Part shown: piece after piece, positions 24,138 through 28,173 of the stretch
Layout: each line of letters begins with the position of its first letter
Position numbering within the stretch: the first letter of the stretch is position 1
Sequence record: PQ850621.1
DNA length: 43,746 nucleotides
Direction: 5' to 3' (one strand)
Origin: Escherichia phage NicoleGrasset_Bas72
Program-made: the position numbers and the translations under genes
The notes under the pieces: generated by a model
What the model was told of the DNA's origin: nothing
Seen by the model: only the letters and a program-made list of their open reading frames with translations
Databases searched by the model: none

Positions 24138-24166
24138 ACTAAGGCCCCGTTTGGGGCCTTTTCTCT
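24138..24166. terminator. bidirectional rho-independent terminator at structural/replication module junction
   Basis: AGGCCCC gttt GGGGCCT then TTTTCT; near-identical to terminator at 12329. Confidence 0.75.
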
Positions 24167-24302
24167 ACTCTTCCGATAACTTCTCCAGCACAAACGCCAG
24201 TTGCGCATTAGCGGCATCTCTCTGCTGACGTAGTCGTAGAACCTCTTCTTCGAGTTCCTTGATACGTTTTTGCAATGCTGGAATCGGGGCTATGATGTTC
24301 AT
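24165..24302 (-). CDS. small coiled-coil peptide (45 aa), putative
   Basis: ATGA overlap with upstream gene stop; sequence MNIIAPIPALQKRIKELEEEVLRLRQQRDAANAQLAFVLEKLSEE; not in ORF track (short). Confidence 0.35.
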   Translation of the reverse strand: MNIIAPIPALQKRIKELEEEVLRLRQQRDAANAQLAFVLEKLSEE

Positions 24303-24484
24303 TTCTCACCTTCGCTTTTCTTGAAGCTGCGCTTTATGTCCGGCAGCGTGTAACATCGTGACTTTTCATATTTACCGTTCGAGCTTACTAAAACAAAGCT
24401 GTTGCCGTCTTTTGATATGTACTCGATGGTGAAAGTATTGAATGAGCGTATGCTGTATATTTCATCGCCAACATTAAGTTTCAT
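24299..24484 (-). CDS. hypothetical protein (61 aa)
   Basis: Overlaps helicase stop; co-oriented with replication operon. Confidence 0.45.
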   Translation of the reverse strand: MKLNVGDEIYSIRSFNTFTIEYISKDGNSFVLVSSNGKYEKSRCYTLPDIKRSFKKSEGEK

Positions 24485-25905
24485 TTCTTACCTCGTCTCT
24501 TCATGTAATTAAGCAACTCTTCCTGTACCGATTTTTTCTCGTCCGTACGCGCGGCAACAACCTCGTCCAGCGTGTCTTTAGCGACGATATGATAGAGGAA
24601 CACCGGGCGCTCGTGTCCCGCCTGTTTCTGGCGGACCGGGCCTATGCGCTCAACAACCTGTAAATAGTGCTCAAGGTTCCACCCTTGCGAAATAAACGCC
24701 AGATGATGTCCGCCGTCCTGTAAATTCAAACCATGACCAGCTGACGCAGGATGCACGCATAAGATCTCAATTTCACCACGGTTCCACGCTTCCATCTGCT
24801 TATTACCCTTAACTCCTTTGGCAAACGCCTGTGCCTGCGGGAATCGCTTAAGGATGCGCTCCAGTTCGTGCTTGAACTGATAAGCCACCAGTAACGGCGC
24901 ACCTTGTAGCTCCTCAACAATTGACTCGAGCGCATCCAGTTTCGTGTCGTGCACTTTCTCCCAGTCTTTGGTTGCTTCTCCGTCGTCACCCGTCACATAC
25001 ACAGCACCGGAAGCAATCTGCAAACACTTAGACGTCTTCGCTGCCGCGTTAGCCGCTTCAACTTCCCCGCTCTCCAGTTCCGCGAATAACTTTTCCTCCA
25101 TATCGATGTACGCCTGACGCGCTTTCTTCGGCAGGTCGATTTCAACAGGTACGATAACCGGCGCTTCGCATCCGAACCACTCAGCGGCGTCAATCGTGAG
25201 ACTGATGTCCTTCATCTTCTGGTGGATTTCAGTATCCGCACCCGGGCGGGCGTGGTATTCGCGCGCCATAGCAGATTTGCCTTTCTGCACCGAGTTAAAC
25301 CAGCGGTCGGTGAATGCCGTGTACGAAGAACCGAGGCGCTCGCCCGCGTCGATAAACCAGTTCTGTCCCCACAAGTCCTTGAGGCCGTTAGGCGATGGTG
25401 TACCTGTCAGGTTGATAAAACGCTTAACCTTTCCGAACGCCACTCTACTAAGCGCCTTCGCCCGCTTGCTGCCGCCTGAACGGCTGCGGAATGACTTCAG
25501 TTTCGTGCTTTCATCGGCAACGATAACGGTAAAAGGCCAGTCGTCTTTGCCGTAGTAGTCAATCAACCACTCTATTACCTCATAGTTCGTGCACACCACG
25601 TTAGCGTCCGACTCCAGCGCCGCGATGCGGCGCTTCTCTGAACCGGTCGCGTCTACGACACGCAGACATGGGAAATTCCACTTAGTTTGTTCCGCCGGCC
25701 ATGTGCCTGATGCAACGCGCAACGGGGCGAGGATTAACACGCGGTCCTCTTCTGTAAGCTGCCCGTTGCGGAACAGTCGGTTTAATGTCCACAGTACGCT
25801 GCCAGTCTTCCCGGCGCCCATGCTCGCCCAAATATTACAGCGATGGTGCCGCAACATGAACGAAGTCATTAGCTTCTGGTATTCGCGCCTTTGAAACTTA
25901 CTCAT
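24481..25905 (-). CDS. SNF2/DEAD-like helicase
   Basis: Walker A MGAGKTGS, DExx box VIVADESTKLK, helicase C-terminal region. Confidence 0.7.
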   Translation of the reverse strand: MSKFQRREYQKLMTSFMLRHHRCNIWASMGAGKTGSVLWTLNRLFRNGQLTEEDRVLILAPLRVASGTWPAEQTKWNFPCLRVVDATGSEKRRIAALESDANVVCTNYEVIEWLIDYYGKDDWPFTVIVADESTKLKSFRSRSGGSKRAKALSRVAFGKVKRFINLTGTPSPNGLKDLWGQNWFIDAGERLGSSYTAFTDRWFNSVQKGKSAMAREYHARPGADTEIHQKMKDISLTIDAAEWFGCEAPVIVPVEIDLPKKARQAYIDMEEKLFAELESGEVEAANAAAKTSKCLQIASGAVYVTGDDGEATKDWEKVHDTKLDALESIVEELQGAPLLVAYQFKHELERILKRFPQAQAFAKGVKGNKQMEAWNRGEIEILCVHPASAGHGLNLQDGGHHLAFISQGWNLEHYLQVVERIGPVRQKQAGHERPVFLYHIVAKDTLDEVVAARTDEKKSVQEELLNYMKRRGKK

Positions 25906-26692
25906 TTACGGCCCCCATGAACGCCTTTATAAATTCAGCGGCTACTTGCGGGACGATAGCATTGCCGTAACCGCGCAATCGTCCCACTCTGGCGGGTACC
26001 CCATTAGCCAGCGGGAATGTGCTGGGTTCAACTGGCCTGAATTTTCCATCCCGGCATCCGAGCCAGTCAGCATCTGACCAGAACCCGTTAGGCGGATTGG
26101 CTGTGTCAGAGATGCCTCTGTTTGCAGATTGTGGCCCCCGTTCCTGCCCTGATGGCCTGCTCCCGCCGAGTTGTTCGCACACGGTGTTGGCCAGTTGCTG
26201 CGCTCCGAAGAACAATCGATTCCTTTTGTGCGGTGCGCCGACGCTACAAGCTGGGAGTACGGCAAACCCGACGGCGTAGTCTTCTCTTTCCAGGTGAGTT
26301 TGTAAATCGCACATCCACGATTTTGCAATTGCTGCCGCAACCTGCTCCCCAAAGATGACTGGAGGGTGGCACTCGCTGATGAGGTCGAGGAGCACAGGTG
26401 CGAGGTGTCTCTGGTCGAACTGTCCGAGTTGCTTTCCTGCCGTGCTAAACGGTTGGCAAGGCGGACTTCCCGTCCATATAGGCGTATCTTCAGAAACTCC
26501 CGCAAGTCTGAGCGCGAGAGGCCAGCCGCCGATACCCGCGAAAAAATGACACTGGGTGAACCCGTCAAGGTCTTCTGGCTTAACTTCGGTAATGCTTCTT
26601 TCATCTACAACTCCAAAAGGTATGTGACCCTGTTTTATCAACTCACGCAGCCACGCGGCTGCGCCTTTATCCCATTCATTGTAATAGTTCAT
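25898..26692 (-). CDS. compact C5-cytosine DNA methyltransferase
   Basis: Motif I FFAGIGG, motif [11 protein letters not shown] (catalytic PCQ), motif VIII-like KRNRLFF, motif X-like [11 protein letters not shown]; only 264 aa, so the target recognition region is short. Confidence 0.7.
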
Positions 26693-26880
26693 TTCGCCAC
26701 CAGCACCAGCTCTTTACGCCCGAACGCCGTAACGTTACCCGTTACATCTTCGATAACCAGTTTACCGTTCGACTCGACGAACACCGTATCAACGGCAACA
26801 GGTTGACGTGTCTTAACGTTGAAAATCATGTCACCCGGTACGATGTCACGTGCTGGTTTGCGGTCGTATTCGTGTTTCAT
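26689..26880 (-). CDS. hypothetical protein (63 aa)
   Basis: AAGGAA SD; first gene downstream of promoter 26914-26942. Confidence 0.45.
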   Translation of the reverse strand: MKHEYDRKPARDIVPGDMIFNVKTRQPVAVDTVFVESNGKLVIEDVTGNVTAFGRKELVLVAK

Positions 26881-26910
26881 TTCTCAATTCCTTATATTGT
26901 TGGTGTGTGA

Positions 26911-27198
26911 TTAACTATAATAGCCCGCTATTAGGTCGTCAACCTGTTTAAACGAACCAACGACAAAAACATTTGCACCACGTTTACGCATCCGCTCGTG
27001 CTCTCGTAACTGGTGCGGGTCCGGCTTCGTGTTTTCGTCTTTCTTAACCTCGACGAACCAGATGATGCCACCAGGGAGAATTACCAGCAGGTCGGGGGCG
27101 CCGGAGCGCCCCTCATAAGACAGCTTACGAACGAGGCCACCAATGGCCTCGAATCGCTCTTTTGCGTATTTCTGCACGCGCCCCTCAGGCGTACTCAT
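26911..27198 (-). CDS. VRR-NUC domain nuclease (PD-(D/E)xK)
   Basis: 95 aa; GAPDLLVI...VEVKK pattern matches the D...E-x-K core of VRR-NUC; GAGGGG SD. Confidence 0.6.
   Translation of the reverse strand: MSTPEGRVQKYAKERFEAIGGLVRKLSYEGRSGAPDLLVILPGGIIWFVEVKKDENTKPDPHQLREHERMRKRGANVFVVGSFKQVDDLIAGYYS
26914..26942 (-). promoter_or_regulatory. sigma70-like promoter TTGACG-N17-TATAGT
   Basis: On minus strand; within the 3' end of the VRR-NUC gene; upstream of 26689-26880 and the methyltransferase. Confidence 0.5.
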
Positions 27199-27279: not shown

Positions 27280-27411
27280 TCATTCCAGCACCCACAGATA
27301 AATTGCGATGAACATGCCCAATATGGCAACCATCATGCCGTATTGACCCTCGTGACAGTAGACACCGGCAGCAAATCCCGCCAGTACCGCGATAATCAGT
27401 TTACTTGGCAT
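27280..27411 (-). CDS. small hydrophobic membrane peptide (43 aa), putative
   Basis: AAGGAG SD 9 nt upstream; MPSKLIIAVLAGFAAGVYCHEGQYGMMVAILGMFIAIYLWVLE; not in ORF track. Confidence 0.35.
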   Translation of the reverse strand: MPSKLIIAVLAGFAAGVYCHEGQYGMMVAILGMFIAIYLWVLE

Positions 27412-28096
27412 CTCTACATTCTCCTTCAGGCCACCTATTAGGAAAAGACGGTATATGTGAAACTTCTCTCGCCGCTTTTATTCTTTTAATGGCGGGACCT
27501 ATCTCCGTAACCATTTCAATGAATGTAAACCGGTGTCCTCTGGTAAGATTACATGTCTGACAACAAGAAACGCAGTTAGATACTATGTGCCCGCTTGTAT
27601 TATCTATGCGGTCTACCCCGACTTTTGTAGTGCTTCCGCAATAATGGCATGGCTGTGATATTAGTTTAATAACGCTTTCCAGTGTTAAATCGCAGATAAG
27701 CCCTTTTCCTGAATCTGCTCTTTTGTATCCTAACAAAAGCGCGTACGCCCGCGTCCTTTGGTCCTTATTCACCAGTTCCCTGCGTTGCTTGTTGAGACAC
27801 TCCCGGCAATCTTTCCTGATATGAGAGCCATTACTTTTATTTCCTTTCCTGAAGTTTTCCTCTGTTAAAGGTTTTACCTCCCCACACTTTCTGCATTTAA
27901 CAGGCTTCCCAGTGAAAACATACCAAGGGCTTTCTCGTCTGGATTTACCTTGTAATTTAAGTTTTTCGTCATACTTTTCCTTCCTGTTAGCATTTACACA
28001 CTCTTTACACCAGCGTTGCAGCCCGAGGCGCGTTGACTTTGAAAAATACTCTGTAGTCGCCGGTTTATCTTCGCCGCATCTTGAACACTTTTTCAT
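27401..28096 (-). CDS. HNH endonuclease with N-terminal zinc-binding Cys pairs
   Basis: CxxC pairs (CSRCG, CKEC, CRKCG) and HNH core HYCGSTTKVGVDRIDNTSGHIVSNCVSCCQTCN; ATG at 28096 with GGAG SD. Confidence 0.7.
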   Translation of the reverse strand: MKKCSRCGEDKPATTEYFSKSTRLGLQRWCKECVNANRKEKYDEKLKLQGKSRRESPWYVFTGKPVKCRKCGEVKPLTEENFRKGNKSNGSHIRKDCRECLNKQRRELVNKDQRTRAYALLLGYKRADSGKGLICDLTLESVIKLISQPCHYCGSTTKVGVDRIDNTSGHIVSNCVSCCQTCNLTRGHRFTFIEMVTEIGPAIKRIKAAREVSHIPSFPNRWPEGECRDAK

Positions 28097-28106
28097 TAAT
28101 AACTCC

Positions 28107-28141
28107 AAAAAAAAATACCGACATAGCCATTATATCGGTAT
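28107..28141 (-). terminator. rho-independent terminator (minus strand) between DNA polymerase and HNH genes
   Basis: On minus strand: stem ATACCGA/TCGGTAT with 13-nt loop, followed by a 9-nt U-run. Confidence 0.6.
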
Positions 28142-28173
28142 TTACATTTTCTACAACGTATTTCCTAAATCTA

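Follow-up and report, generated by a model that had tools for sequence, protein, structure and literature searches.

Overlapping reading frames in a compact phage gene: a probable two-polypeptide C5-cytosine methyltransferase in Escherichia phage NicoleGrasset_Bas72

M.EcoHK31I (E. coli HK31; YGGCCR) is a C5-cytosine methyltransferase made of two polypeptides (Lee, Kam & Shaw 1995, as described in PMC2836561). According to that description, the alpha chain has motifs I–VIII and X, the beta chain carries motif IX and is read from a different frame that lies entirely within the alpha gene, and both chains are needed for activity. The N-terminal 42 amino acids (aa) of the beta chain are dispensable, and there are alternative internal Met starts (PMC2836561). 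M.AquI from Agmenellum quadruplicatum is a naturally split C5-methyltransferase that needs both of its subunits, as recounted in PMC5944983. Bacillus phages SPR, phi3T and rho11s carry multispecific C5-methyltransferases (Trautner et al. 1996, cited in PMC12707154). M.BssHII, M.Alw26I, M.Esp3I and M2.BsaI are circularly permuted, and all known natural C5 permutants are circular, with motifs IX-X ahead of motif I (type H) (PMC5944983). The subject of this study is a C5-cytosine methyltransferase gene of Escherichia phage NicoleGrasset_Bas72 (sequence record PQ850621.1) and a second open reading frame (ORF) nested within it. The window, meaning the whole stretch of DNA that was analysed, is 43,746 nucleotides (nt) long and is essentially a whole Kagunavirus genome (Guernseyvirinae).

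The locus probably encodes an orphan two-polypeptide C5-cytosine methyltransferase that resembles M.EcoHK31I, with an alpha chain read from the main frame and a beta chain nested within it. This reading was reached by sequence comparison across a large family of related loci. To our knowledge, the nested-beta layout has been studied experimentally only in M.EcoHK31I, which has so far been treated as a curiosity. The original prediction for this locus described the main-frame product as a compact enzyme, and the 220-codon nested ORF at 25942–26604 was absent from it. The features of the two frames are as follows, in order of transcription; motif assignments are predictions.

25898–26692, minus strand: alpha, the main-frame C5-cytosine methyltransferase, 264 aa (Pfam PF00145; phrog_363, E = 1.5e-82)
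25942–26604, minus strand: beta, a 220-codon ORF nested in the +1 frame of alpha (phrog_1008, E = 7.9e-53; phrog_31772, E = 3.1e-21)
26669–26686, minus strand: alpha motif II-like YYNEWD at the extreme N-terminus (HMMER and hhalign; columns nearly invariant in the family)
26611–26614, minus strand: GGAG, a Shine-Dalgarno (SD)-like sequence 6 nt upstream of the beta ATG at 26602–26604
26525–26545, minus strand: alpha motif I, FFAGIGG, aa 50–56 (HMMER places aa 35–65 onto M.HhaI 2–32)
26444–26470, minus strand: alpha motif with the catalytic cysteine, PPCQ (motif IV, aa 77–80; HMMER and hhalign)
26227–26382, minus strand: beta conserved block 1 (aa 75–126: ..LQSSLGxRL..G..YxLTWKxxxTPSG..LxASxxRT), dual-coded with alpha motifs VI–VIII
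26216–26233, minus strand: alpha motif VIII, PHKRNR, aa 154–159 (HMMER and hhalign)
26087–26200, minus strand: alpha variable spacer, aa 165–202, open but unselected in the alpha frame and overlapping the beta cassette
26101–26193, minus strand: beta cassette 'A', the only WPTP module of this phage, 31 aa
25984–26031, minus strand: beta motif-IX-like block, 16 aa, dual-coded with the alpha C-terminal block
25949–25966, minus strand: alpha motif X, GNAIVP, aa 243–248 (near-invariant columns; selection in the main frame only from aa 237)

Beta is a protein-coding frame under selection

A +1 open run as long as beta arose in 9/20,000 synonymous shuffles of the methyltransferase gene, and the window has no other ORF of 150 codons or more nested in a gene on the same strand. 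The family was then sampled with 80 viral loci whose alpha relatives have 46–73% identity, 75 of them distinct. The +1 frame was stop-free over the middle 220–300 codons in 75/75 distinct loci, with +1 stops confined to the two ends of the gene, within at most 41 codons of the start (60 in one locus) and within the last 5–20 codons. The synonymous-shuffle null predicts ∼5.9 +1 stops per gene. The +2 frame contained 14.5 stops compared with 13.3 under the null.

Codon position was used to ask which frame is constrained. Position 1 of an alpha codon is position 3 of a beta codon, and positional entropy was read along the codon alignment. Alpha aa 1–103 and 237–264 gave the pattern of single-frame coding, in which position 3 is the most variable. 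Alpha position 1 was the most variable over alpha aa 127–142, 167–209 and 221–236. The pattern reverts to alpha position 3 at aa 237, exactly at the start of motif X. To avoid favouring either frame, pairs of the variable beta cassettes were picked for comparison by nucleotide identity. Between 50 and 67% of the nucleotide differences fell at beta position 3 and 10–31% at alpha position 3. Beta is a real protein-coding frame under selection, and the alpha spacer is unselected in the alpha frame. Where the two frames overlap conserved blocks both translations are conserved, which makes this true dual coding. Within this methyltransferase family, dual coding is both ancient and universal.

These results bear on the original prediction, which held that the gene specifies a single compact methyltransferase with little room for a target-recognition domain (TRD), that its specificity may therefore be short or relaxed, and that it is clustered with the neighbouring SNF2 and VRR-NUC genes. 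On this explanation the three genes would act together as one module, and the nested ORF would be a by-product of composition. The description behind this explanation is partly confirmed. Alpha is short and carries catalytic motifs; motifs I, IV, VIII and X are present in the 264-aa product, motif VI as well, and there is indeed no room for a conventional TRD. The genes are also contiguous and translationally coupled. However, the nested ORF lies far beyond chance both in the window and family-wide, purifying selection acts on its reading frame, and SNF2 and VRR-NUC genes are not near the methyltransferase in most relatives. We consider this explanation extremely unlikely. The step from small size to relaxed specificity is undermined because the alpha stretch between motif VIII and the C-terminal block is unselected in the main frame and selected in the +1 frame, which encodes a separate protein that probably supplies the missing parts of the enzyme.

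Beta would be translated independently of alpha, from its own GGAG and ATG within the alpha gene. A beta-frame TAG stop immediately precedes the ATG, which in the window lies at alpha codon 30. A universal start at alpha codon 30 was considered and rejected (GAT 51, GAC 30), as the start shifts among codons 26, 30, 36 and 40. In most family members the first ATG after the last +1 stop is found at one of these four codons, usually with an SD-like sequence. In many members (loci L004, L010, L012 and others) Arg32-Ser33 is encoded as AGG-AG[CT], which creates an AGGAG SD sequence for an ATG at codon 36. The first ∼70 residues of beta form a serine-rich leader that is not conserved as protein, yet the frame is open. 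An open but unconserved leader fits internal initiation upstream of the conserved part together with a leader that is dispensable. One family representative, P0298, has a zinc-finger/HNH-like insertion in the beta leader.

The nested frame has been annotated before. In the RefSeq record of phage K1G both genes are present, as ORF31 and the nested ORF30, and ORF30 is listed there as another DNA methyltransferase. Elsewhere the nested product goes by "methyltransferase" or "Mte8-like", and its PHROG matches are labelled DNA methyltransferase. A literature search on Mte8, on Kagunavirus/Jerseyvirus methylation and on overlapping phage methyltransferase genes found nothing on the nested gene. The run GGGGTACCC at 25993–26002 (minus strand) is read as G-V-P in alpha and G-Y-P in beta, a motif-IX-type G-x-P in both frames. 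That the same bases give G-x-P twice is a hint that the overlap arose by frameshift from a gene that once had a single frame.

Predicted roles of the two chains

Judged by its motifs, the main-frame gene is a genuine but incomplete C5-cytosine methyltransferase gene. Alpha scores 59.4 bits against PF00145 (cut-off 22), with only aa 72–164 aligned, and 40.4 against NCBIfam TIGR00675, which is below the cut-off of 100.65. Using hhalign, alpha matched canonical C5-methyltransferases across motifs I and IV–VIII (probability 98.3%, E = 2.4e-14). The columns of motifs I, IV, VI, VIII and X vary little or not at all across the family. Motif VI is GEQV (aa 115–118), in which Q replaces the N of ENV. 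Motif IX and a selected target-recognition region were not found in the alpha frame.

The order of the alpha motifs also appears unusual. The hhalign comparison with canonical enzymes shows a 30-column gap at the usual place of motifs II–III, and a motif II–III-like segment (YYNEWDK...GVVD; YYNEWDK...VDERSI) is found at alpha aa 2–29. HMMER pairs YYNEWDKGA of alpha with M.HhaI 37–45 (YSNEWDKYA), and hhalign aligns the N-terminal 45 aa of alpha to HhaI 36–61, which comprises motifs II–III (P = 0.0015). Since this segment aligns ahead of motif I, the predicted order in alpha is II-III-I-IV, which is not circular. We know of no description of this non-circular permutation among C5-methyltransferases.

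Beta appears to consist of an unconstrained leader, a conserved block, one WPTP cassette and a motif-IX-like block. Block 1 is kept across loci of just 35–50% identity. The C-terminal part also has an R.T.SG..LTGS.AGM segment. The beta profile gave a single hhalign match, either to M.HhaI or to an alignment of 10 canonical sequences, and this match placed beta 191–208 on HhaI 273–290, which is motif IX (KLHPRECARVMGYPDSYK). The M.HhaI reference sequence was confirmed against PDB (752 bits over residues 1–327). The motif-IX-like block is spaced exactly as motif IX is, and it stops at the point where motif X of alpha starts. Its core pattern, which canonical motif IX shares, was found a single time when the window was translated in all six frames, and every occurrence in 2.5 M aa of loci was in a beta context.

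The cassettes vary in number and kind. Among the best 150 family representatives, W-x-[TS]-P anchors numbered 0–8 per protein. Clustering at 55% identity gave 24 clusters, a few of which are unsplit double cassettes, and 42 architectures among 71 parsable close relatives. Examples among the relatives are C, B-H-F, E-C, H-F and C-F, and the window has a single A. One tentative proposal is that the WPTP cassettes are exchangeable DNA-target modules. The locus might then represent a heterodimeric, combinatorially multispecific C5-methyltransferase whose modules recombine in one frame while the catalytic frame is merely kept open, in addition to the non-circular II-III-I-IV permutation of alpha. 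We would rate this combination as possible and no higher.

In the arrangement that we favour, alpha would be the catalytic core, with motifs I, IV, VI, VIII and X for binding S-adenosylmethionine and for catalysis, and with a read-through spacer at the position of the TRD. The small-domain parts that alpha lacks most likely come in trans, as in M.EcoHK31I, because the +1 frame encodes a separate 220-aa protein that has a motif-IX-like block and a cassette. Alpha and beta would assemble into one enzyme, to which beta would bring small-domain elements, namely motif IX and, through its cassette, probably target recognition. Phage DNA would be methylated during replication, most plausibly for restriction evasion. 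An orphan, anti-restriction-type role is the most plausible one.

Beta might instead be real and conserved without being a methyltransferase subunit. It could serve as a regulator, a DNA-binding accessory or an anti-defence factor that does no more than share DNA with the methyltransferase gene, and alpha would be a self-sufficient compact enzyme. We think this unlikely, but a number of results speak for it or otherwise weigh against a two-chain enzyme. The match of beta to motif IX of HhaI is short and ungapped, with 33% identity and a marginal P = 0.065–0.077, and the motif-IX core pattern was partly chosen after beta had been seen. Pfam returned no meaningful match to beta, and the beta profile found only a chance match among PDB sequences (LptG, E = 1.4). 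A chimera of alpha(1–165), beta(137–210) and alpha(241–264) scored 58.4 bits against PF00145 compared with 59.4 bits for alpha, and the match was not extended; C-terminal pieces of the alpha/beta/alpha chimera likewise failed to extend it. AlphaFold2 models made with close relatives as alignment rows had a mean predicted local distance difference test score (pLDDT) of 36.8 for alpha and 47.6 for beta, too low for a fold search. The alpha C-terminal block is strongly conserved in its own frame, and may contain a minimal recognition element together with a degenerate motif IX on the same nucleotides, in which case alpha would be self-sufficient. This block gave no sensible hhalign alignment with canonical enzymes. 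The TRD of M.EcoHK31I has been assigned to alpha, whereas the selected variable cassettes are in beta here. Finally, the presence of up to 8 cassettes exceeds the number known for multispecific enzymes.

The distribution of beta argues for a subunit. Beta was nested in the +1 frame of a PCQ...GNA ORF in 73/80 bacterial loci that were fetched, and the remaining 7 were contig-end cuts, pattern misses or broken genes. A beta that stood alone or was in frame with PCQ was found in 0/80 of these loci. None of the 160 loci examined had beta apart from this methyltransferase gene, which speaks against a role outside the enzyme. The motif-IX-like block, with its spacing and its end at motif X, is also the best-conserved block of beta. 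M.EcoHK31I provides a precedent, with the same layout and an essential beta chain (PMC2836561). In representative P0273 the C-terminus of beta is fused to an NPPY adenine-methyltransferase-like domain, which we counted as support for a subunit.

Programmed frameshifting offers another way to join the two frames. The ribosome would read alpha motifs I–VIII, shift +1 into the beta cassette and motif IX, then shift −1 back to motif X, giving one chain in canonical order. An alpha-beta-alpha splice would indeed restore the order VIII-TRD-IX-X, beta-frame selection stops exactly at the start of motif X, and one family representative, P0272, is an in-frame fusion of alpha 1–94 to beta. However, two efficient shifts would be required. 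Frameshifting leaves unexplained the open beta leader, with 45–75 unconstrained codons and an SD sequence and ATG ahead of it, the openness of the alpha frame through cassettes of up to ∼140 codons, and the alpha-frame conservation of aa 203–236. Splicing the frames in the chimera does not raise the Pfam score above the one for alpha. P0272 is the only one of the best 150 representatives with PCQ in frame with beta (1/150); it is indel-like and probably an indel product. Frameshifting is thus very unlikely, and two independently translated chains remain our preferred explanation.

Family spread and genomic context

The beta family is large. Beta homologues numbered 5,129 at 90% clustering, and the beta profile matched 14,646 representatives at 50% identity, 4,561 of them with E ≤ 1e-30. 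Scanning one genome per bacterial species yielded 523 loci from Proteobacteria, Desulfovibrio, Planctomycetes, Bacteroidetes, Verrucomicrobia and others. The 14,646 beta representatives suggest that the nested-beta layout defines a very large family. Gene callers usually retain one of two overlapping ORFs, so that thousands of phage and prophage "compact" cytosine methyltransferases would have been annotated as single small enzymes, and specificity reasoned from enzyme size alone is misleading. Near-identical phages that differ only in their beta cassettes form natural sets for the study of target choice and anti-restriction diversification. The family is also very well suited to testing how overlapping genes evolve, as about 660 nt are dual-coded on the same strand, the arrangement has persisted through deep divergence, and one of the frames recombines in modules.

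A different nested gene was seen in Streptococcus phage P0095 (KY705255). There, a coding sequence annotated 'DNA methyltransferase' (L248:452-871) is nested in the +1 frame of a C5-methyltransferase gene with canonical motif order (L248:301-1164). The product of this nested S. thermophilus phage coding sequence contains CSLSDILEEQVEDKYFLS, a motif that follows motif VIII in the same frame of canonical enzymes. Dual coding may have arisen here a second time, independently, or the nested annotation may be an artefact.

The region around the locus was compared with other phages using megablast. The segment 24100–27500 matched 487 phage records, the top match being Escherichia phage vB-Eco-KMB35 (99.6% identity), ahead of other Kagunavirus and Jerseyvirus genomes. 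The neighbours of the methyltransferase gene are listed below.

26911–27198, minus strand: VRR-NUC-like nuclease, 95 aa (phrog_93, E = 4.7e-33; phrog_5702, Holliday junction resolvase, E = 8.9e-21)
26942 to 26914, minus strand: sigma-70-like site TTGACG-17-TATAGT (10/12 matches)
26689–26880, minus strand: 63-aa ORF, function unassigned (phrog_4879, E = 1.3e-46)
24481–25905, minus strand: SNF2-family helicase, 474 aa (SNF2-rel_dom, 49.7 bits, cut-off 24.9; phrog_62 'DNA helicase', E = 8.7e-169)
24299–24484, minus strand: small ORF, 61 aa
24165–24302, minus strand: small ORF, 45 aa
24141–24160, minus strand: terminator-like hairpin at the end of the gene block, after the 45-aa ORF (8-bp stem, 6 GC pairs, T-rich tail)

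The VRR-NUC-like, methyltransferase and SNF2 ORFs lie on the minus strand at the positions originally given, and the methyltransferase gene does overlap the start of the helicase, by 8 nt (AATGAGTAA). The methyltransferase was also said to follow the VRR-NUC gene. The order is correct, but the two are not adjacent; the 63-aa ORF intervenes, and its stop shares ATGA with the alpha start. The name VRR-NUC has good PHROG support (phrog_93), while the match to Pfam VRR_NUC (PF08774) is below the gathering threshold (18.9 bits, E = 0.0016; gathering score 23.8). The helicase scores 19.2 for Helicase_C, slightly under the cut-off of 23.5. Identification of the helicase as DISARM DrmD or Zorya ZorD was rejected, since NCBIfam scores were far under the cut-offs and the similarity is of the generic SNF2 kind.

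All of these genes had been placed behind a promoter at 26914–26942. A promoter-like site is present there, but it sits within the last codons of the VRR-NUC-like gene, so that this gene is upstream of the site and not behind it. The number of promoter-like sites in the region, 4, is what chance predicts (4.4 in shuffles). The TTGACG and TATAGT hexamers are retained in close Kagunaviruses, though they are inside coding sequence. Terminator-like hairpins at 28113–28143 and 24141–24160 (minus strand) flank a block that runs from a 235-aa ORF to the last small ORF. As the two hairpins bracket it, the block appears to be transcribed as a single unit downstream of DNA polymerase, and the promoter-like site is internal to it. 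The 235-aa ORF (27401–28108, minus strand), between DNA polymerase and the VRR-NUC gene, has repeated CxxC pairs. Close relatives have it annotated as 'restriction endonuclease' or 'endonuclease VII'; K1G lacks it at this position. The ORF resembles a mobile HNH-type insertion.

The proposal that the methyltransferase, SNF2 and VRR-NUC genes form a functional cluster did not survive comparison with the family. An SNF2 homologue was near the methyltransferase in just 6/69 viral and 3/74 bacterial loci, and a conserved system of the three genes was rejected on this ground. SNF2 and VRR-NUC in the window are within a replication block that adjoins DNA polymerase I, and their linkage to the methyltransferase is lineage-specific synteny of the Guernseyvirinae replication module. 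A locus of Tatumella ptyseos ATCC 33301 (L083, 3910–5082) illustrates another setting, with the dual-frame methyltransferase in the nin region of a lambdoid prophage. The gene order there is O, P, NinB, methyltransferase, NinG, Q, and SNF2, VRR-NUC and restriction genes are not adjacent. No restriction gene was seen beside the methyltransferase in the window or in the L083 flanks that were scanned.

Comparison with known systems

The Bacillus phage enzymes resemble the phage locus in being phage-borne orphans, and are described as having a variable number of ∼40-aa tandem modules between motifs VIII and IX. In both cases module content varies between close relatives. The Bacillus phage modules are proven to recognise targets and share a chain and frame with the catalytic motifs, whereas the putative modules here are in an overlapping frame and have a W-P-T-P anchor.

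The natural circular permutants are like alpha in that their motif order is non-canonical. Alpha differs from them in that only motif I appears to have moved, giving II-III-I-IV.

M.AquI, by its published account, is split between motif VIII and the variable region and has small-domain elements on the second chain, as proposed for the phage locus. Its subunits come from consecutive, slightly overlapping genes, whereas nesting is complete here. The second chain of M.AquI is described as holding both motifs IX and X, whereas motif X stays on alpha in the phage locus.

M.EcoHK31I, compared by its published description, has a fully nested beta like the phage locus, and internal initiation as proposed here. 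The dispensable N-terminus of its beta chain parallels the unconstrained ∼70-aa leader of phage beta. We are not aware of any report of permuted motifs in M.EcoHK31I. It belongs to a restriction-modification system, whereas the genes described here are orphans in a lytic phage and in prophages. As far as the sequences can tell, the phage locus most likely differs from the M.EcoHK31I kind in two respects, the selected variable cassettes in beta and the permuted order of alpha.

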